A stretch of DNA of 64,000 bases from a virus. Shown piece by piece: positions 9,275 to 51,792 of the stretch. The position numbers and the translations under genes were made by a program. The DNA lies in the IMG/VR virus record IMGVR_UViG_3300041097_000006, one strand, 5' to 3'. Every line of letters begins with the position of its first letter. Within the stretch, counting starts at the first letter, position 1. The notes under the pieces were generated by a model. That model worked only from the letters and a program-made list of their open reading frames with translations. It made no database searches and was not told the DNA's origin.

Positions 9275-9381
9275 CGCAGCATCCATCTAGTGGGTAGACG
9301 GATGCCTAATACTAGATGTAGGGGGGTTATGTCAAGGCGGGTCCCGGGGGAGGGGGCGTTAACCGACGGAATCCGGCGATG

Positions 9382-9435
9382 AACACGTTGCAGCGGACGG
9401 GCCTGACGGCCCTCCGCTGAATTCACACGTTAGGT
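9382..9435 (+). repeat. attC: attC site 1, truncated (L'', L', R' present; R'' missing)
   Basis: AACAC GTTGCAGC GGACGGGCCTGACGGCCCTCC GCTGAAT TCACAC GTTAGGT; the 7 bp where R'' should be read GGCGATG. Confidence 0.75.
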
Positions 9436-9600
9436 TTCTCGGGCACGCTTGAGCGCAGCCCGCAGCCATTCTTTACCGCCGAGGCGGTCGTACTTCGCCT
9501 TCTCGGCTTCCGTTACCCGCTCCCGAATCATGGCCGTCTGAGCCTCTTCTGGTGGCAGTGCGGGGCGTCCGCGTGGCTTCTTTGGGGCCGCCTTAGTCAT
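9430..9600 (-). CDS. Cassette 1: 56-aa ribbon-helix-helix-like DNA-binding protein
   Basis: MTKAAPKKPRGRPALPPEEAQTAMIRERVTEAEKAKYDRLGGKEWLRAALKRARET; paralogue at 12048-12215; TAA stop is the complement of the TTA in R'. Confidence 0.7.
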   Translation of the reverse strand: MTKAAPKKPRGRPALPPEEAQTAMIRERVTEAEKAKYDRLGGKEWLRAALKRARET

Positions 9601-9877
9601 TCGCGCTCCGCAGGTATTCGCGCAGCGTGAGCGTTTCTCCGGCGTGCAGCCGCTTGTTGCACTTCGGACAGGTGTATGTCGAGCCGTGCGAACCGTCGCT
9701 ATGCTCGCAATCAACCGGGTACGGTGCTTCTGACCAGCCGCGCGCCATGTTCCACAGGTCAGGCTCGCCATCGCTGCATGGCGTACCTGGCCGAGATTGC
9801 GCTCCGCAGCACTGGCAAACCGCCCGCACTTTCCCATTCCTCGCTCGCACATAATTGACCGCTTTGCTGGTGCTCAT
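9593..9877 (-). CDS. Cassette 1: zinc-ribbon protein (CxxC...CxxC), unknown function
   Basis: VCQCCG...TYTCPKCN; GGGAG 7 nt before ATG 9877; overlaps the start of the regulator gene. Confidence 0.7.
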   Translation of the reverse strand: MSTSKAVNYVRARNGKVRAVCQCCGAQSRPGTPCSDGEPDLWNMARGWSEAPYPVDCEHSDGSHGSTYTCPKCNKRLHAGETLTLREYLRSAND

Positions 9878-9958: not shown

Positions 9959-10016
9959 ACCTAACTCCACATTGCACCGGATCGCCTCCGGCGCCCGGTG
10001 AATTCAGTCGTTAGAG
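9959..10016 (+). repeat. attC: attC site 2 (58 bp, intact)
   Basis: ACCTAAC TCCAC ATT[G]CACC GG[A]TCGCCTCCGGCGCCC GGTGAAT TCAGTC GTTAGAG. Confidence 0.92.
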
Positions 10017-10273
10017 CGCATGCGAATCTTGTCCGCCGCATCCCCAGCCGTTCCGTGTTCGTGGTCGCAGATGTTTGCGCAAACCTCGCGCTCGGCGAGC
10101 ACAGCCAGCCCGACGCAGTTCTCCGCAATCGCTTCTACTTGCTTGCGCCCGTCGCGCTCGCCGGCTTTGTATGCCGCTTGCGCAACCTCTTCCGCGTCCG
10201 CTCTCCCGATCCCATGCCCGGCCATCATGGAGTGGTATCGCTTGCTGCGCTTCTTCCAGTCTGCAAAGCTCAT
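10004..10273 (-). CDS. Cassette 2: 89-aa hypothetical phage protein
   Basis: GGGAG SD; AAYKAGERDG...AEREVCANIC...AADKIRMRSN resembles small phage proteins; ends inside attC2. Confidence 0.7.
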   Translation of the reverse strand: MSFADWKKRSKRYHSMMAGHGIGRADAEEVAQAAYKAGERDGRKQVEAIAENCVGLAVLAEREVCANICDHEHGTAGDAADKIRMRSND

Positions 10274-10302: not shown

Positions 10303-10360
10303 CTCTAACACTACGTTGCAGCCGACCGCCTTCGGCGGCGGCTGAACTTCGACGTTAGAG
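10303..10360 (+). repeat. attC: attC site 3 (58 bp, intact)
   Basis: CTCTAAC ACTAC GTT[G]CAGC CG[A]CCGCCTTCGGCGGCG GCTGAAC TTCGAC GTTAGAG. Confidence 0.95.
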
Positions 10361-10367
10361 CGCTCCA

Positions 10368-11060
10368 TCACTCCGCACCAAAGCTCGCGGCAAGCCGGTC
10401 GTCGAAAGCGTCGTCGCTCTTGTCGCGCAAGATGCCCTCGAAAAACACGTCGGGCTCAGACTCCAGCAGGAAATGCGTCGCGCACGTCCAGGCTTTCGCC
10501 TCATCCTTCGCTTCCGGCGTCATCCTCTCGCTGCGGTCAATGGCCGCGAGGTATTCGCACTTCCGGCACTCTTGGCCGAGTCCGCAGCGCAAATGGTTGT
10601 CGGGTAGCGGCATCGCCGGTCTGGGGTCGTGGCCGCACATCTTGTAGCTGGTCGGCATGCCGCGCTCGCGCTCGTACTGGAACAGCAGCACCATGCGTGG
10701 CACTTCGTCGCTGATCTTCATTGCCGAGTACATCACTCGCGGCCACTCGCCGCCGTTCTCGCGCAGCCGGTCGCTCTCGGCGTTGCAGGCAGCGTGCCAT
10801 GCGTGGTCGCCGCATCCGCGCTGGTCAGTTCCACGGTTCGCCCGTTCCAGCCGCATTCCGCGCATGTACTCGGCGCCTTCCTTCAGCTGCTCCAGCATGT
10901 TGCCGCGGTCTCTGGCATAGCGGCGCAGGTACACGCCGGCCATCAGGCGGTCCTTCTGCTCAGGCGTCATTTTGTCGCGGTCCATGCCGGGCCAGCGCCA
11001 TAGCTCTTCGTGGTCAATCCGGTTCGCCAGTGCTTCCAGTTCTTCGGGTGTTGCTGCCAT
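10368..11060 (-). CDS. Cassette 3: ~230-aa hypothetical protein with Cys/His-rich C-terminal half
   Basis: Long ORF filling the cassette; GGAG 9 nt before ATG 11060; CGH...HLRC...ECRKC...WTCATH. Confidence 0.8.
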   Translation of the reverse strand: MAATPEELEALANRIDHEELWRWPGMDRDKMTPEQKDRLMAGVYLRRYARDRGNMLEQLKEGAEYMRGMRLERANRGTDQRGCGDHAWHAACNAESDRLRENGGEWPRVMYSAMKISDEVPRMVLLFQYERERGMPTSYKMCGHDPRPAMPLPDNHLRCGLGQECRKCEYLAAIDRSERMTPEAKDEAKAWTCATHFLLESEPDVFFEGILRDKSDDAFDDRLAASFGAE

Positions 11061-11089: not shown

Positions 11090-11146
11090 CTCTAACTATC
11101 GCTTGCAGCGGACGCCGTACCGGCGCCGCTGAAGCTGGCGTTAGAA
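11090..11146 (+). repeat. attC: attC site 4 (57 bp, intact)
   Basis: CTCTAAC TATCG CTT[G]CAGC GG[A]CGCCGTACCGGCGCC GCTGAAG CTGGC GTTAGAA. Confidence 0.95.
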
Positions 11147-11398
11147 CCCTTGAAACTCGCCCATGCGCTCGAACTGGTCGCGGGTCAGGAATACCGGCGT
11201 CACGGTGTATTCGCAGTCGCTCTCCGCAACCATCGCCTCAGCCTCGGCCGGCTCCATCACGCACGCGGTGCCGTCGTGCTCGACGCGAGAAAATCGCTCC
11301 GTCTTGTAGTCTTCGCACCCCGGCGCATGGTCAGCCGGTGGGTATTTGCCGCCCTTCGTTTCTTGCCAGTCGCGGCACCAGTCCTTGCAGTTGCACAT
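11141..11398 (-). CDS. Cassette 4: 85-aa hypothetical protein (Cys-rich N-terminus)
   Basis: MCNCKDWC...HAPGC...; SD GGAGG comes from the attC5 spacer; TAA stop lies in R' of attC4. Confidence 0.7.
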   Translation of the reverse strand: MCNCKDWCRDWQETKGGKYPPADHAPGCEDYKTERFSRVEHDGTACVMEPAEAEAMVAESDCEYTVTPVFLTRDQFERMGEFQGF

Positions 11399-11401
11399 GG
11401 G

Positions 11402-11489
11402 TTCTAACCCTCCGTTGCAGCAGACGCCGTGAAGCGCCGCAGGTTTATCCAAGCGCCGTCGCGCGGCGCTGCTGAACTACACGTTATGC
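11402..11489 (+). repeat. attC: attC site 5 (88 bp, intact)
   Basis: TTCTAAC CCTCC GTT[G]CAGC AG[A]CGCCG...CGGCGCT GCTGAAC TACAC GTTATGC. Confidence 0.93.
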
Positions 11490-12004
11490 GACGCAGCCCG
11501 AATCTCCCACAGGGTTCGAGCAACCCCGCTTTCCTCGGTGGCATCGCGCTTGTCCCGGAGCTTCACGCTGCTTTCGGCCCAGTTCTTGCGCGGTGCCAAG
11601 TCCTTCGCTTTCACCCAACCGGCAGCGCGGAGGGATGCCCCGCTTTCGTCCTGCCGGGTGTAGGTAATACACCGCCTGTACCCCATGGCTTTCGCCGCCC
11701 GCCAAATCGCCCCATACAACATCGAGTTGGCATTTCTGGTTCCATCGGTGCAAGTGCGGTTAACTTCCAAGGTCAGGCCGTCGTCAAAGCACCGGGCCAC
11801 GGGTCGCCCAGCCGTAGCAACGCCAACCAGTTCGGTGCCCTGGCGCAGCCCAACCCCAAACTTCCAGCCTGTCGGCGGCTTGTTGTGTCGGCGCATCGCG
11901 GCCACGAACGCCTTGGCCTCTGCCAGTGTTATCGGCACCACATGCAAAACCGGCATAACAAGGCGGTCAAGCGGACCTGCCGAAACGGCGCTTTCGCTCA
12001 TCAT
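11477..12004 (-). CDS. Cassette 5: XF1762-family phage protein (GNAT-like fold, inferred)
   Basis: RHNKPPTGWKFGVG, LVGVATAGRPVAR.FDDGLTLEVNRTCTDGTRNANSMLYGA, ITYT..DESGASLRAAGW; start lies inside attC6. Confidence 0.8.
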   Translation of the reverse strand: MMSESAVSAGPLDRLVMPVLHVVPITLAEAKAFVAAMRRHNKPPTGWKFGVGLRQGTELVGVATAGRPVARCFDDGLTLEVNRTCTDGTRNANSMLYGAIWRAAKAMGYRRCITYTRQDESGASLRAAGWVKAKDLAPRKNWAESSVKLRDKRDATEESGVARTLWEIRAASHNV

Positions 12005-12046
12005 TTACCCTTATCTCGCGGCAGTCCGCTTACCTCTACGTTAGGT
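11953..12046 (+). repeat. attC: attC site 6 (94 bp, intact)
   Basis: GCATAAC AAGGC GGT[C]AAGC GGA[C]CTGCCG...CGGCAGTCC GCTTACC TCTAC GTTAGGT. Confidence 0.93.
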
Positions 12047-12051
12047 TTCAT
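12001..12051 (-). CDS. Possible 16-codon coupling mini-ORF through attC6 (MKPNVEVSGLPRDKGK)
   Basis: ATG overlaps the stop of the 12048-12215 gene and its TGA overlaps the ATG of the cassette 5 gene (ATGA at both ends). Confidence 0.4.
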   Translation of the reverse strand: MKPNVEVSGLPRDKGK

Positions 12052-12215
12052 TTCCGCGGCTTCCTGGCCAGCTCGCGCACAAGCCAAGCCTTCCCGCCAC
12101 GCGCTTCGTATTCAGCCTTCTGTGCCTCCGTCACCCGCTCCCGAATCATGGCCGTCTGCGCTTGGTCAGGCGGTAGCGCAGGACGGCCGGGCTGTCGTTT
12201 CTCGGCCTTGGTCAT
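12048..12215 (-). CDS. Cassette 6: 55-aa ribbon-helix-helix-like DNA-binding protein (absent from ORF track)
   Basis: Hand translation MTKAEKRQPGRPALPPDQAQTAMIRERVTEAQKAEYEARGGKAWLVRELARKPRK; 28/36 identical to the cassette 1 regulator core. Confidence 0.75.
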   Translation of the reverse strand: MTKAEKRQPGRPALPPDQAQTAMIRERVTEAQKAEYEARGGKAWLVRELARKPRK

Positions 12216-12403
12216 GCGGCAATCGCATCCACGCCAGGAGCGCGAATCACAAGATCATTGCTGCCGCAATCCGGGCAACAATAGTTGTCCACCTTGGTCA
12301 AGGTGCCATCGGCCTTCCAGCCGGTCCAAGGCTTGTTCTCCCGCTCTTCCAGCGGGAGAATTACGCGGCACTTCATGCAACGGAAATGGGTCTCGGTTTT
12401 CAT
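12212..12403 (-). CDS. Cassette 6: 63-aa zinc-ribbon protein
   Basis: FRCMKCR...YCCPDCGSNDL; GGAGG SD before ATG 12403; ATGA-coupled to the regulator. Confidence 0.7.
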   Translation of the reverse strand: MKTETHFRCMKCRVILPLEERENKPWTGWKADGTLTKVDNYCCPDCGSNDLVIRAPGVDAIAA

Positions 12404-12414
12404 CTTCGCCTCCA

Positions 12415-12558
12415 TTACTTCGGGGCGCGTTGCGTAACTTTGAGCTGACCCTTCAGGTGGCCTTCGAGAATTTCGATCTCGTAGAACATCCCGCCGTGAA
12501 TGGTCATGGTCTTGCCGGTATAGCGGGCTAGGTCGCCGTAGAAGTAGGTGGTTTTCAT
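12415..12558 (-). CDS. Cassette 6: 47-aa hypothetical protein
   Basis: MKTTYFYGDLARYTGK...; GGAG SD; first gene after the cassette promoter. Confidence 0.65.
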   Translation of the reverse strand: MKTTYFYGDLARYTGKTMTIHGGMFYEIEILEGHLKGQLKVTQRAPK

Positions 12559-12589
12559 GTTGCGCTCCGCGTTCGTTGATGGTGTAGTT

Positions 12590-12634
12590 ATTGTGGCGCA
12601 ATAATCAACCATTGTCAAGCGTTTTCGTGGCACA
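12590..12634 (-). promoter_or_regulatory. Cassette 6 sigma70 promoter with two operator-like palindromes
   Basis: Minus strand TTGACA-17bp-CACAAT; TGTGGCGCA at 12592-12600 and CGTGGCACA at 12626-12634. Confidence 0.7.
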
Positions 12635-12637
12635 GAA

Positions 12638-12707
12638 ACCTAACTCCACATTCCACCGGACGGCCCAAATCTGCGCTTTGGTCCTCCGGTGAATTCAGCC
12701 GTTGGGC
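12638..12707 (+). repeat. attC: attC site 7 (70 bp, intact)
   Basis: ACCTAAC TCCAC ATT[C]CACC GG...CC GGTGAAT TCAGCC GTTGGGC; close relative of attC2. Confidence 0.92.
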
Positions 12708-13258
12708 TTCATGAAAACGTACCAGTGCGTTCCGGCCTTCTTGCCGGAGGTGTTGCCGAACAGTGGCCGCACTGGCGTCAGATCCAAGACCTCGCGCACC
12801 TTCACTTGCGTTTCGTTCCACTTGAACACGAGCACGCCGTGAGGCCTCAGCACGCGGAAGCATTCGGCAAAGCCGGCGCGCAGGTCGTCGCGCCAGTCCT
12901 GGCCGAGCTTCCCGTACTTCGCCGCCAGCCAGGAGCGCGGGCCAGCGCGCACCAAATGCGGCGGGTCAAACGCTACGAGGTGGAAGCTCTCTTCCGGGTA
13001 TGGCAGCGCCCGGAAGTCCATCATCACGTCCGGCTCAATGCACAGCGTTCGCGTGCCATCCTCGCGGCCGTGCGAGCGGTCGGTCACGGTCACGGTCTCG
13101 CTGCGCCGGTCTCCGAACACGACGTCCGGGTTCTCGCGGTCAAACCAGAACATCCGGCTACCGCAGCAGGGGTCAAGCACGCGCGGCATGCAGCCCAACC
13201 CGTCGGTCAACACGGACTGCCCGCCAGCAGCGTTCGTTCGCGCGTTGTGGTCGCTCAA
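12695..13258 (-). CDS. Cassette 7: phage SAM-dependent (putative DNA amino-) methyltransferase
   Basis: VLDPCCGSRMFWF, DFRALPY, VAFDPPHL, ECFRVLRPHGVLVFKWNE; SD AAGGAG and TTG start inside attC8. Confidence 0.85.
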   Translation of the reverse strand: MSDHNARTNAAGGQSVLTDGLGCMPRVLDPCCGSRMFWFDRENPDVVFGDRRSETVTVTDRSHGREDGTRTLCIEPDVMMDFRALPYPEESFHLVAFDPPHLVRAGPRSWLAAKYGKLGQDWRDDLRAGFAECFRVLRPHGVLVFKWNETQVKVREVLDLTPVRPLFGNTSGKKAGTHWYVFMKPNG

Positions 13259-13318
13259 CCTTCTTCTCCTTCGGTGGCCGCGCCAGAGGCGGGCAGCCGG
13301 TTACCTTCGACGTTAGAG
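13193..13318 (+). repeat. attC: attC site 8 (126 bp, intact, three extrahelical bases)
   Basis: GCCCAAC CCGTC GGT[C]AAC[A]CGG[A]CTGCCCGCC...GGCGGGCAGCCGGTTACC TTCGAC GTTAGAG. Confidence 0.92.
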
Positions 13319-13510
13319 CGCGTCTTGATCCTGCGCGTAATAGACCTTCCTCGCCTCGGAAATAACTTGCGTAATCGCAGAGCCGAGCCGCGAGGATGGC
13401 CACTTGTTTTCGAGTTGGTCCCGCAGAGCCGTCCACTCCTTCACCGACATGGTGATCTTCACGGTTGCCTCAATCTCGTCAGGCGCTTCAATCATGAATC
13501 TGGCTTTCAT
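13313..13510 (-). CDS. Cassette 8: 65-aa hypothetical protein
   Basis: MKARFMIEAPDEIEATVKITMSVKEW...; GGAG SD; TAA stop in R' of attC8. Confidence 0.7.
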   Translation of the reverse strand: MKARFMIEAPDEIEATVKITMSVKEWTALRDQLENKWPSSRLGSAITQVISEARKVYYAQDQDAL

Positions 13511-13533: not shown

Positions 13534-13578
13534 CTCTAACATTTGCGTCAACGCGGACGCTTCGCAAGCTCAGCGCCG
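13534..13578 (+). repeat. attC: attC site 9, truncated (R'', L'' and inner stem present; L' and R' missing)
   Basis: CTCTAAC ATTTG CGT[C]AAC[G]CGG[A]CGCT...AGCGCCG, then unrelated sequence in place of GTTACG...GTTRRRY. Confidence 0.75.
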
Positions 13579-14115: not shown

Positions 14116-14196
14116 GGTATTTCCTCCTGAAATATAAATAGGCATCCCGCATACCGTCCGGCCCGCCGTCCGATTCGCCCATCTCCTCCATCCCCT

Positions 14197-14396
14197 TGTC
14201 CGAAACGTCCGATTCACCTCCCCTTTAGGGGGTGAATCGGACGTTTCGGACATAGGGGAATGGATGGGCGTACGATAATCGACGTGACTAATCGGACATG
14301 AATCGTACGCTGATTCGTACGCTGCGAATACGAAAAATCGGACGATAATTATCGTCATGAACGCGGTAATTATGAGCCCGGTTATCATAATTACCG
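14197..14396. promoter_or_regulatory. Cluster of perfect inverted repeats (candidate replication origin or regulatory hub)
   Basis: 22-bp IR 14197-14218/14231-14252, 16-bp palindrome GACGATAATTATCGTC 14341-14356, 12-bp IR 14364-14375/14385-14396; recurrent AATCGGAC and CGTACG. Confidence 0.6.
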
Positions 14397-48357: not shown

Positions 48358-48483
48358 CGTTTGCTCCCGCTTTCGTTGATCGTGCATTTAGTGTGGCACA
48401 ACAATTAGCGGTGCGCAAGCATTATTTGTGGCACAAAAACCTAACTCCACATTGCACCGGATCGCCTCCGGCGCCCGGTGAAT

Positions 48484-48753
48484 TCAGTCGTTAGAGCGCA
48501 TGCGAATCTTGTCCGCCGCATCCCCAGCCGTTCCGTGTTCGTGGTCGCAGATGTTTGCGCAAACCTCGCGCTCGGCGAGCACAGCCAGCCCGACGCAGTT
48601 CTCCGCAATCGCTTCTACTTGCTTGCGCCCGTCGCGCTCGCCGGCTTTGTATGCCGCTTGCGCAACCTCTTCCGCGTCCGCTCTCCCGATCCCATGCCCG
48701 GCCATCATGGAGTGGTATCGCTTGCTGCGCTTCTTCCAGTCTGCAAAGCTCAT
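48484..48753 (-). CDS. Copy 2: cassette 2 hypothetical protein
   Basis: Same as 10004-10273. Confidence 0.7.
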   Translation of the reverse strand: MSFADWKKRSKRYHSMMAGHGIGRADAEEVAQAAYKAGERDGRKQVEAIAENCVGLAVLAEREVCANICDHEHGTAGDAADKIRMRSND

Positions 48754-48847
48754 TTGTCGTTCTCCCTCTTGTCGGCCGTGCGCTCTAACACTACGTTGCA
48801 GCCGACCGCCTTCGGCGGCGGCTGAACTTCGACGTTAGAGCGCTCCA

Positions 48848-49540
48848 TCACTCCGCACCAAAGCTCGCGGCAAGCCGGTCGTCGAAAGCGTCGTCGCTCT
48901 TGTCGCGCAAGATGCCCTCGAAAAACACGTCGGGCTCAGACTCCAGCAGGAAATGCGTCGCGCACGTCCAGGCTTTCGCCTCATCCTTCGCTTCCGGCGT
49001 CATCCTCTCGCTGCGGTCAATGGCCGCGAGGTATTCGCACTTCCGGCACTCTTGGCCGAGTCCGCAGCGCAAATGGTTGTCGGGTAGCGGCATCGCCGGT
49101 CTGGGGTCGTGGCCGCACATCTTGTAGCTGGTCGGCATGCCGCGCTCGCGCTCGTACTGGAACAGCAGCACCATGCGTGGCACTTCGTCGCTGATCTTCA
49201 TTGCCGAGTACATCACTCGCGGCCACTCGCCGCCGTTCTCGCGCAGCCGGTCGCTCTCGGCGTTGCAGGCAGCGTGCCATGCGTGGTCGCCGCATCCGCG
49301 CTGGTCAGTTCCACGGTTCGCCCGTTCCAGCCGCATTCCGCGCATGTACTCGGCGCCTTCCTTCAGCTGCTCCAGCATGTTGCCGCGGTCTCTGGCATAG
49401 CGGCGCAGGTACACGCCGGCCATCAGGCGGTCCTTCTGCTCAGGCGTCATTTTGTCGCGGTCCATGCCGGGCCAGCGCCATAGCTCTTCGTGGTCAATCC
49501 GGTTCGCCAGTGCTTCCAGTTCTTCGGGTGTTGCTGCCAT
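48848..49540 (-). CDS. Copy 2: cassette 3 hypothetical protein
   Basis: Same as 10368-11060. Confidence 0.8.
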   Translation of the reverse strand: MAATPEELEALANRIDHEELWRWPGMDRDKMTPEQKDRLMAGVYLRRYARDRGNMLEQLKEGAEYMRGMRLERANRGTDQRGCGDHAWHAACNAESDRLRENGGEWPRVMYSAMKISDEVPRMVLLFQYERERGMPTSYKMCGHDPRPAMPLPDNHLRCGLGQECRKCEYLAAIDRSERMTPEAKDEAKAWTCATHFLLESEPDVFFEGILRDKSDDAFDDRLAASFGAE

Positions 49541-49620
49541 CTTCAAATTCTCCAAGTTCTACCACCGCGCTCTAACTATCGCTTGCAGCGGACGCCGTAC
49601 CGGCGCCGCTGAAGCTGGCG

Positions 49621-49878
49621 TTAGAACCCTTGAAACTCGCCCATGCGCTCGAACTGGTCGCGGGTCAGGAATACCGGCGTCACGGTGTATTCGCAGTCGC
49701 TCTCCGCAACCATCGCCTCAGCCTCGGCCGGCTCCATCACGCACGCGGTGCCGTCGTGCTCGACGCGAGAAAATCGCTCCGTCTTGTAGTCTTCGCACCC
49801 CGGCGCATGGTCAGCCGGTGGGTATTTGCCGCCCTTCGTTTCTTGCCAGTCGCGGCACCAGTCCTTGCAGTTGCACAT
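49621..49878 (-). CDS. Copy 2: cassette 4 hypothetical protein
   Basis: Same as 11141-11398. Confidence 0.7.
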   Translation of the reverse strand: MCNCKDWCRDWQETKGGKYPPADHAPGCEDYKTERFSRVEHDGTACVMEPAEAEAMVAESDCEYTVTPVFLTRDQFERMGEFQGF

Positions 49879-49956
49879 GGGTTCTAACCCTCCGTTGCAG
49901 CAGACGCCGTGAAGCGCCGCAGGTTTATCCAAGCGCCGTCGCGCGGCGCTGCTGAA

Positions 49957-50484
49957 CTACACGTTATGCGACGCAGCCCGAATCTCCCACAGGGTTCGAG
50001 CAACCCCGCTTTCCTCGGTGGCATCGCGCTTGTCCCGGAGCTTCACGCTGCTTTCGGCCCAGTTCTTGCGCGGTGCCAAGTCCTTCGCTTTCACCCAACC
50101 GGCAGCGCGGAGGGATGCCCCGCTTTCGTCCTGCCGGGTGTAGGTAATACACCGCCTGTACCCCATGGCTTTCGCCGCCCGCCAAATCGCCCCATACAAC
50201 ATCGAGTTGGCATTTCTGGTTCCATCGGTGCAAGTGCGGTTAACTTCCAAGGTCAGGCCGTCGTCAAAGCACCGGGCCACGGGTCGCCCAGCCGTAGCAA
50301 CGCCAACCAGTTCGGTGCCCTGGCGCAGCCCAACCCCAAACTTCCAGCCTGTCGGCGGCTTGTTGTGTCGGCGCATCGCGGCCACGAACGCCTTGGCCTC
50401 TGCCAGTGTTATCGGCACCACATGCAAAACCGGCATAACAAGGCGGTCAAGCGGACCTGCCGAAACGGCGCTTTCGCTCATCAT
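49957..50484 (-). CDS. Copy 2: cassette 5 XF1762-family protein
   Basis: Same as 11477-12004. Confidence 0.8.
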   Translation of the reverse strand: MMSESAVSAGPLDRLVMPVLHVVPITLAEAKAFVAAMRRHNKPPTGWKFGVGLRQGTELVGVATAGRPVARCFDDGLTLEVNRTCTDGTRNANSMLYGAIWRAAKAMGYRRCITYTRQDESGASLRAAGWVKAKDLAPRKNWAESSVKLRDKRDATEESGVARTLWEIRAASHNV

Positions 50485-50527
50485 TTACCCTTATCTCGCG
50501 GCAGTCCGCTTACCTCTACGTTAGGTT

Positions 50528-50695
50528 TCATTTCCGCGGCTTCCTGGCCAGCTCGCGCACAAGCCAAGCCTTCCCGCCACGCGCTTCGTATTCAGCCTTC
50601 TGTGCCTCCGTCACCCGCTCCCGAATCATGGCCGTCTGCGCTTGGTCAGGCGGTAGCGCAGGACGGCCGGGCTGTCGTTTCTCGGCCTTGGTCAT
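50528..50695 (-). CDS. Copy 2: cassette 6 RHH-like regulator
   Basis: Same as 12048-12215. Confidence 0.75.
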   Translation of the reverse strand: MTKAEKRQPGRPALPPDQAQTAMIRERVTEAQKAEYEARGGKAWLVRELARKPRK

Positions 50696-50883
50696 GCGGC
50701 AATCGCATCCACGCCAGGAGCGCGAATCACAAGATCATTGCTGCCGCAATCCGGGCAACAATAGTTGTCCACCTTGGTCAAGGTGCCATCGGCCTTCCAG
50801 CCGGTCCAAGGCTTGTTCTCCCGCTCTTCCAGCGGGAGAATTACGCGGCACTTCATGCAACGGAAATGGGTCTCGGTTTTCAT
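50692..50883 (-). CDS. Copy 2: cassette 6 zinc-ribbon protein
   Basis: Same as 12212-12403. Confidence 0.7.
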   Translation of the reverse strand: MKTETHFRCMKCRVILPLEERENKPWTGWKADGTLTKVDNYCCPDCGSNDLVIRAPGVDAIAA

Positions 50884-50894
50884 CTTCGCCTCCA

Positions 50895-51038
50895 TTACTT
50901 CGGGGCGCGTTGCGTAACTTTGAGCTGACCCTTCAGGTGGCCTTCGAGAATTTCGATCTCGTAGAACATCCCGCCGTGAATGGTCATGGTCTTGCCGGTA
51001 TAGCGGGCTAGGTCGCCGTAGAAGTAGGTGGTTTTCAT
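50895..51038 (-). CDS. Copy 2: cassette 6 47-aa protein
   Basis: Same as 12415-12558. Confidence 0.65.
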   Translation of the reverse strand: MKTTYFYGDLARYTGKTMTIHGGMFYEIEILEGHLKGQLKVTQRAPK

Positions 51039-51174
51039 GTTGCGCTCCGCGTTCGTTGATGGTGTAGTTATTGTGGCGCAATAATCAACCATTGTCAAGC
51101 GTTTTCGTGGCACAGAAACCTAACTCCACATTCCACCGGACGGCCCAAATCTGCGCTTTGGTCCTCCGGTGAAT

Positions 51175-51738
51175 TCAGCCGTTGGGCTTCATGAAAACGT
51201 ACCAGTGCGTTCCGGCCTTCTTGCCGGAGGTGTTGCCGAACAGTGGCCGCACTGGCGTCAGATCCAAGACCTCGCGCACCTTCACTTGCGTTTCGTTCCA
51301 CTTGAACACGAGCACGCCGTGAGGCCTCAGCACGCGGAAGCATTCGGCAAAGCCGGCGCGCAGGTCGTCGCGCCAGTCCTGGCCGAGCTTCCCGTACTTC
51401 GCCGCCAGCCAGGAGCGCGGGCCAGCGCGCACCAAATGCGGCGGGTCAAACGCTACGAGGTGGAAGCTCTCTTCCGGGTATGGCAGCGCCCGGAAGTCCA
51501 TCATCACGTCCGGCTCAATGCACAGCGTTCGCGTGCCATCCTCGCGGCCGTGCGAGCGGTCGGTCACGGTCACGGTCTCGCTGCGCCGGTCTCCGAACAC
51601 GACGTCCGGGTTCTCGCGGTCAAACCAGAACATCCGGCTACCGCAGCAGGGGTCAAGCACGCGCGGCATGCAGCCCAACCCGTCGGTCAACACGGACTGC
51701 CCGCCAGCAGCGTTCGTTCGCGCGTTGTGGTCGCTCAA
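51175..51738 (-). CDS. Copy 2: cassette 7 methyltransferase
   Basis: Same as 12695-13258. Confidence 0.85.
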   Translation of the reverse strand: MSDHNARTNAAGGQSVLTDGLGCMPRVLDPCCGSRMFWFDRENPDVVFGDRRSETVTVTDRSHGREDGTRTLCIEPDVMMDFRALPYPEESFHLVAFDPPHLVRAGPRSWLAAKYGKLGQDWRDDLRAGFAECFRVLRPHGVLVFKWNETQVKVREVLDLTPVRPLFGNTSGKKAGTHWYVFMKPNG

Positions 51739-51792
51739 CCTTCTTCTCCTTCGGTGGCCGCGCCAGAGGCGGGCAGCCGGTTACCTTCGACG

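Follow-up and report, generated by a model that had tools for sequence, protein, structure and literature searches.

The virus record IMGVR_UViG_3300041097_000006 of IMG/VR, analysed here over a stretch of 64,000 nucleotides (the window), probably contains a phage-borne cassette array of the integron type, arranged in mirror image, in which the loops of attC sites, or a spacer within them, supply start signals for some of the genes. The textbook integron cassette is a promoterless gene followed by attC, and is rarely described from phages. Here the polarity is opposite, and a single DNA stretch would serve as recombination hairpin, ribosome-binding site and coding sequence. An original prediction on the same DNA had argued for co-adaptation of site and gene in a long-standing inverted system. 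We retain that idea on the strength of about 200 phage attC sites, three mutually exclusive start layouts in one gene family, and the statistics on reading frames and overlaps given below. We do not retain the part of the argument drawn from gene stops: the TAA at issue is the core consensus, is as frequent in forward cassettes and is native in attC-free homologs.

An inverted attC array in a phage genome

Eight cassettes lie between an HNH gene and a small terminase gene. All their genes are on the - strand, and the attC top strand is on the + strand. A structure-based detector recognised seven intact inner attC sites (57-126 nt), all on the + strand, and none in 256 kb of shuffled sequence. 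In each of the seven, all six box pairs were formed on the + strand only: R'' (RYYYAAC) and R' (GTTRRRY) boxes are present, with 55-141 nt between them as the criterion, L'' pairs with L', the L'' arm bears an extrahelical base, the spacers measure 5 nt and 5/6 nt, and the bottom strand folds into a hairpin. The outer sites, attC1 and attC9, are degenerate and look broken. With at least two attC sites in one orientation and no intI, the array is by definition a cluster of attC sites lacking integrases (CALIN), and it would function as an integron array does. Its polarity is not the canonical one, in which the gene runs along the top strand of attC and has attC following it on the 3' side; instead, each attC lies 5' of its own bottom-strand gene. 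No recognisable attI site or Pc promoter was seen in the window, and the single promoter-like site is inside cassette 6. Pfam and PHROGs put a name on only the methyltransferase and the Mom-like gene among the array genes.

Positions 38,480 bp apart in the window are 100% identical: it contains a phage genome of this length, duplicated head to tail. The array is therefore repeated at +38480 (48439-51792), and the second copy is not independent evidence. The phage sequence is present in sediment metagenome runs.

To place this array we used comparison loci from an orientation-blind attC pattern search (about 110 viral and about 120 bacterial), with more added by cargo searches; bacterial sites served as the forward control. 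The gene adjoining R'' was inverted in 189 and forward in 9 viral cases, against 4 inverted and 83 forward in bacterial genomes (p=7e-56), the viral set having been gathered with two search patterns and the bacterial set with one. Inverted orientation is thus the rule in the viral sample.

Probable gene starts inside attC sites

The strongest evidence for starts within the sites comes from long inverted phage sites, those of 70 nt or more. Of 132 loops, 39 held a Shine-Dalgarno (SD) sequence with an open in-frame ATG; shuffling the loops with composition preserved gave 3.0, and purine richness of the bottom strand is for that reason an insufficient explanation. After de-duplication, 68/104 loop ATGs were in frame with the downstream gene (p=2e-11), and the phase of the ATG co-varied with the frame of the gene (p=3e-7). 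Genes starting in the loop had often lost their own SD after R'' (present in 21/49, versus 62/69 at other sites; p=4e-8), and the attC-encoded leader of loop-start sites had a median of 20 residues. Short inverted sites had no loop ATG starts. In the window, the three longest attC sites carry start signals, and the single-gene cassettes behind short sites (attC3 and attC4) have their own SDs. Taken together, these comparisons support the view that a long hairpin carries the ribosome-binding site, the start codon and the first ~20 codons of its own gene.

The individual starts proposed in the original prediction were all recovered. For the methyltransferase, the SD and TTG lie in the attC8 loop, 7 nt apart (Table 1). 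Two homologs among the viral loci (L349 and L350) keep both in the same place; a third, L351, has ATG instead of TTG and ATT at the rival downstream ATG, so that it must start in or before the loop. The cassette-5 start is an in-frame ATG-ATG pair in the loop of attC6, and locus L084 shows an identical layout.

Cassette 4 uses a different arrangement. As predicted, the 5-nt R''-L'' spacer of attC5, CCTCC, reads GGAGG on the coding strand at exactly 10 nt from the ATG. Its duplex with the anti-SD (-10.0 kcal/mol) is the strongest among 19 sites with an ATG at most 13 nt from R'', and nearly all of 76 homologs begin at the Met of this ATG. A longer open reading frame (ORF) from TTG 11452 was rejected: it has no SD, and homologs start at 11398. 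Three mutually exclusive layouts exist among loci of this family. In 5 loci the ATG adjoins R'' and the spacer resembles an SD; in 11 the gene has its own SD past R'' and the spacer is neutral; in 3 the start lies in the loop and the native Met is lost. Spacer SDs below -4.5 kcal/mol were found in 4/5 loci with the ATG next to R'' and in 0/14 others (p=0.0013). The spacer as an SD in general was rejected (p=0.17 across all families); to judge from these loci, the GGAGG spacer is a solution of the cassette-4 family and not a rule.

Overlapping stops and starts

In attC3, attC6 and attC8, the ORF that enters the site in the frame reading the core as Asn overlaps at its end, by 4 nt, the start of the site's own cassette. 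Each of these three sites thus has a short ORF of the ORF-11 type that crosses the crossover and ends at or near the next start. The case of attC6 is a relay of 16 codons that joins the stop of cassette 6 to the start of cassette 5 through two 4-nt overlaps. Family-wide, loop-start sites showed the overlap in the Asn frame in 14/35 cases, versus 2/35 and 1/35 in the other frames, and the excess held for all sites (17 vs 3; p=0.003). At L349 and L351 the upstream gene truly reads through to the point of overlap. Such an arrangement would couple the translation of any upstream neighbour to that of the cassette gene.

Cassettes 1 and 6 are twins with an identical core sequence that is used differently (9430-9600 and 12048-12215): cassette 1 ends on the core TAA, while cassette 6 stops 8 nt earlier and hands over to the relay ORF.

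Table 1. Features of the cassette array in window coordinates.
Feature	Coordinates	Strand	Remarks
attC1	9378..9435	+	degenerate R''; crossover G 9429; core TAA (9430) ends last gene of cassette 1
Cassette 1	9430..9877	-	two genes (9593-9877, 9430-9600); twin of cassette 6
attC2	9959..10016	+	58 nt, short; crossover G 10010; gives cassette 2 its +7 stop
Cassette 2 gene	10004..10273	-	89 aa; own SD (-8.5) after R''; extends 7 nt into attC2
attC3	10303..10360	+	58 nt; Asn-frame ORF of 28 codons spans entire site, ATGA overlap with cassette-2 start
Cassette 3 gene	10368..11060	-	about 230 aa; own SD; stop 14 nt short of core
attC4	11090..11146	+	57 nt; crossover G 11140
Cassette 4 gene	11141..11398	-	85 aa; Cys-rich, conserved family; core TAA is its native stop
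attC5	11402..11489	+	88 nt; crossover G 11483; gives cassette 5 its +7 stop
Putative GGAGG SD (R''-L'' spacer of attC5)	11409..11413	-	10 nt before ATG 11398
Cassette 5 gene	11477..12004	-	phrog_1384, Mom-like/XF1762-type; likely start ATG 12004/12001 in attC6 loop; rival ATG 11956 in R''
attC6	11953..12046	+	94 nt; loop with moderate SD (12008-12013) and likely cassette-5 start
Relay ORF	12001..12051	-	16 codons; crosses R'/L' arm; ATGA overlaps at both ends (cassette-6 stop; loop ATG)
Cassette 6	12048..12618	-	sigma-70-like promoter (12618-12590) and small genes; stop of last gene 8 nt ahead of core Asn codon
attC7	12638..12707	+	70 nt; crossover G 12701; gives methyltransferase its +7 stop
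Cassette 7 DNA methyltransferase	12695..13258	-	phrog_954; probable TTG start in attC8 loop; 22 attC-encoded N-terminal residues; rival ATG 13189
attC8	13193..13318	+	126 nt; Asn-frame ORF of 19 codons, TTGA overlap with TTG start
Putative AAGGAG SD in attC8 loop	13266..13271	-	93% unpaired (predicted)
Cassette 8 gene	13313..13510	-	65 aa; own SD; ends on core TAA
attC9 remnant	13534..13578	+	R'' and L'' only; no matching R'

Gene ends and the crossover core

The original prediction also took two kinds of gene end as signs of co-evolution. The geometry was right: the TAA stops at 9430, 11141 and 13313 are the complement of the TTA that follows the crossover G (9429, 11140, 13312), and the ends at 10004, 11477 and 12695 lie 7 nt past it. 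Neither observation points to tuning. The core reads GTTA in 7/8 window sites, and the gene-ending TAA is built in because this consensus complements to it. A stop at +7 is common in attC sites generally: its enrichment in phage sites over bacterial sites of matched L-box type was weak (p=0.04 and 0.14), and it was not matched to the neighbour above chance (28/72 vs 40/150; p=0.087). At these +7 ends, the neighbour contributes one residue and the stop only. The further idea that the last residues depend on the neighbour does hold among homologs, whose read-through tails vary with it from 1 to about 40 residues.

The 222 phage genes divide into 68 whose stop is the core TAA, 73 that run on into the site and 81 with a stop short of the core. 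For forward bacterial cassette genes, 26/81 end on the TAA of R'' and 3/81 read through into the site; most resistance cassettes are known to overlap their stop with attC (PMC11511950). By frame at the core, 72 phage genes are in the Asn frame, 68 in that of TAA and 1 in the third, third-frame genes stopping just before the core. In 28 cases the latter stop 8 nt before the core Asn codon, 17 of them with GTGA (viral loci L117-L228). A general restart codon overlapping these -8 stops was rejected (22/27, not above a 74% background), although cassette 6 in the window has one.

Homologs suggest where the core came from. Those of cassette 4 that lack attC already end in Gly-Phe-stop with a core-like sequence, and among the cassette copies of this family R'' changes in step with the gene end. 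For the methyltransferase, the Pro preceding the core Asn is already present in 58/77 native copies. Because attC-free homologs and native copies already end in this way, the gene supplied the core, and the site did not evolve to give stops. For these two gene families, the comparison shows the core to be the gene's own ancestral last codons, mirrored by R''.

The mirror between cassette ends reaches 12/13 nt, including an ATG just after R'' (window 11141-11410 and 12695-13200); the mirrored ATG matches a CAT near the gene end, where many homologs read His-Gly-Phe-stop. A mirror of this extent suggests that the gene end served as the template for R''.

Recombination, integrases and cassette origin

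Methyltransferase homologs have the site body upstream in common, and their sequences part immediately past the AAC in which the gene ends, which fits a bottom-strand crossover at AAC (G^TT). For diverged pairs, the count of which gene the site body travels with was 9/15. R'' matched the R' of its own cassette over a median of 8 nt and that of the neighbour over 5 (260 phage cassettes), with 7 vs 5 in bacteria. Four DNA runs of one study yielded no variants or joints, but these consist of contigs only and have no bearing on shuffling.

In three inverted arrays of the comparison set (L190, L177 and L197), the cassette genes are followed downstream, on their own strand, by an integron integrase scoring above the TIGR02249 cut-off (L190:7266-8288, L197:7605-8729, L177:39-992). 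A short junction resembling attI, common to L190 and L197 as judged by eye only, precedes intI in both. At a further locus with an integrase (L396:1918-3258), a lone cassette-4 homolog beside the integrase points opposite to the rest of the inverted array and was possibly inserted by its other strand. We infer that cassettes are shuffled by an integron integrase, host-derived in the present phage and phage-encoded in some relatives. Integron integrases insert at short genomic GWT sites, named attG (bioRxiv 10.1101/2022.09.11.507474), and insertion at GWT on the antisense strand of gene ends would yield the inverted geometry.

Methyltransferases with an attC tail, labelled by protein end only, do not form one clade (13 changes; p-AU 3e-63). 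The tree fits repeated capture, loss or exchange and cannot tell which. The body of the window's methyltransferase (12695-13258) groups with native copies P0005 and P0010, and its attC leader matches the clade of P0001, P0004 and P0025; this weakly supported split hints at exchange between native and cassette copies.

Another contig in the same metagenome runs (up to 11.8 kb) holds a near copy of the attC3 body (window 10318-10359) with different flanks, and may come from a phage or host that co-occurs with this one and has sites of the same family. Outside the array, a 30-nt inverted repeat lies upstream of the HNH gene (14190-14260); the one Rfam match in the window falls there and was dismissed as chance.

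A model for the inverted array and its alternatives

In the arrangement we propose, the attC top strand is + and the genes are -, with the crossover at the 3' end of the upstream gene. Homolog junctions show a mobile unit made of the attC body followed by the gene, and the hairpin would therefore be transcribed ahead of its own gene. Comparative statistics show three initiation layouts, which ribosomes would use. Behind short sites the gene has an SD and ATG of its own, 20-35 nt past R''; long sites such as attC6 and attC8 present SD and start in the unpaired loop and would so fuse a leader of ~20 attC-encoded residues; and in rare cases such as attC5 the R''-L'' spacer would act as the SD. 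The core is met by genes either as a stop (TAA) or in the Asn frame, and in no other way. In many sites the Asn frame stays open up to a stop that overlaps their own start, and ribosomes arriving from any upstream gene would unwind the hairpin and re-initiate across this overlap.

A broader scheme can be put forward only tentatively, and we lean slightly away from it: phages may possess a mirror-image integron system of their own, in some cases with a phage-encoded IntI closing the same operon, and cassettes may have been made repeatedly from ordinary phage genes, the last codons becoming the R' core, R'' being copied as its mirror, and the attC body becoming a portable translation adaptor that couples the gene to any neighbour.

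Several points weigh against a working inverted array with attC-borne starts. No integron integrase was found in the phage genome with 14 recombinase queries against the window, and there are the broken-looking outer sites. Both loop-start genes have a rival in-frame ATG overlooked in the original prediction, at 13189 with a weak SD (-4.9) for the methyltransferase and at 11956, inside R'', with no SD (+0.7) for cassette 5, whose loop SD is itself moderate (-3.4/-5.1). The purine-rich bottom strand of attC is a known recombination feature (PMC5027507) and pre-adapts loops for SDs. Within one gene family the leaders bear no sequence relation to one another, and so they are probably tolerated linkers. 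Gene frames and starts came from a self-trained codon model and a home-made SD score, with many sites unclassified; p-values are optimistic, since sites are related despite de-duplication.

Could the signals be a mere by-product, the chance outcome of the attC consensus (GTTA giving TAA, TCA giving TGA at +7) and of a purine-rich bottom strand, with no selection for translation? This explains the core TAA, on which forward bacterial cassettes end too, and largely the +7 stop, with its weak enrichment and lack of neighbour match; the purine skew is real, and SD 5-mers are bottom-biased in bacterial sites as well (13 vs 3 of 110). It fails on the in-frame loop ATGs and their 13-fold excess over composition-matched shuffles, on the loss of own SDs at loop starts, on the interchange of TTG and ATG in homologs and on the excess of overlaps. 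Chance is thus refuted for the start side and stands for the core TAA; as an account of the whole it is very improbable. The loops could also be relics, native phage gene junctions (stop, SD, start) captured along with the gene, the proteins starting at 13189 and 11956 and the loop signals being left over or only feeding ribosomes. Loops do resemble native junctions, native homologs start near the downstream Met positions, and both downstream ATGs are in frame. We nevertheless hold this to be improbable, given the poor SDs of those ATGs, the loss of the downstream ATG in L351, which keeps the loop ATG, the three cassette-4 homologs whose native Met is gone and whose start lies in the loop, and the persistence of start signals across diverged loops.

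Finally, the sites might no longer be integrase substrates but domesticated seams, surviving in a translational role and as homology on which illegitimate or homologous exchange can draw. The absence of an IntI-like match in the genome, the state of the outer sites, the lack of joints in the four DNA runs (contigs only) and the weakly supported split between methyltransferase body and leader all agree with this. The seven inner sites, however, retain boxes, extrahelical base and spacers; R'' matches the R' of its own cassette over 7-10 or more nt; homologs diverge right at AAC on both sides; and relatives encode IntI beside such arrays. We regard domestication as unlikely.

Relation to known systems

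There is no reliable model of cassette birth (PMC4792948). Where a gene family has native as well as cassette copies, the core can be seen to come from the gene's own end, which offers a testable handle on cassette genesis; if our scheme is true, such paired copies would make it directly traceable. The arrangement also explains why annotated phage proteins vary in their N- and C-terminal tails, and tools that assume forward cassettes will misassign cassette boundaries. We found no inverted phage arrays with attC-borne starts in the literature searched, most subscription journals lying outside its reach.

Phage CALINs are already published (Qi et al. 2023, PMC9892861): they are integrase-less attC clusters with methyltransferase cargo, and of six phage attC sites tested there, five proved able to recombine with IntI1. 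Our array resembles them in lacking an integrase and in its cargo. It differs in its inverted genes and in having the initiation region in the site, whereas the accessible part of that paper describes typical arrays and mentions neither antisense genes nor in-site starts. The likeness to forward cassettes (PMC11511950) lies in the stop inside the core box (26/81 vs 68/222) and in R''/R' complementarity (median 7 vs 8); the differences lie in read-through into the site (3/81 there, 73/222 in phages) and in the box overlapped, here R', the one that is cut. Insertion at attG (bioRxiv 10.1101/2022.09.11.507474) fits in that the antisense of a gene end in TAAC or CAAC is a GTT target, but leaves unexplained why R'' mirrors the gene end and how a start arises in the loop. 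The closest functional parallel is in class 1 integrons, where ORF-11, ORF-17 and ORF-18 in attI1 and short ORFs inside attC aid translation, as reviewed in PMC8876359 (which cites Jacquier 2009). In both systems the site gives an initiation region or a short crossover-spanning ORF, takes a stop from the neighbour and would couple to the next gene. The class 1 aids work from the top strand, to the benefit of a foreign cassette downstream, while those of the phage array lie on the bottom strand, belong to the same cassette and are fused to its gene in frame.

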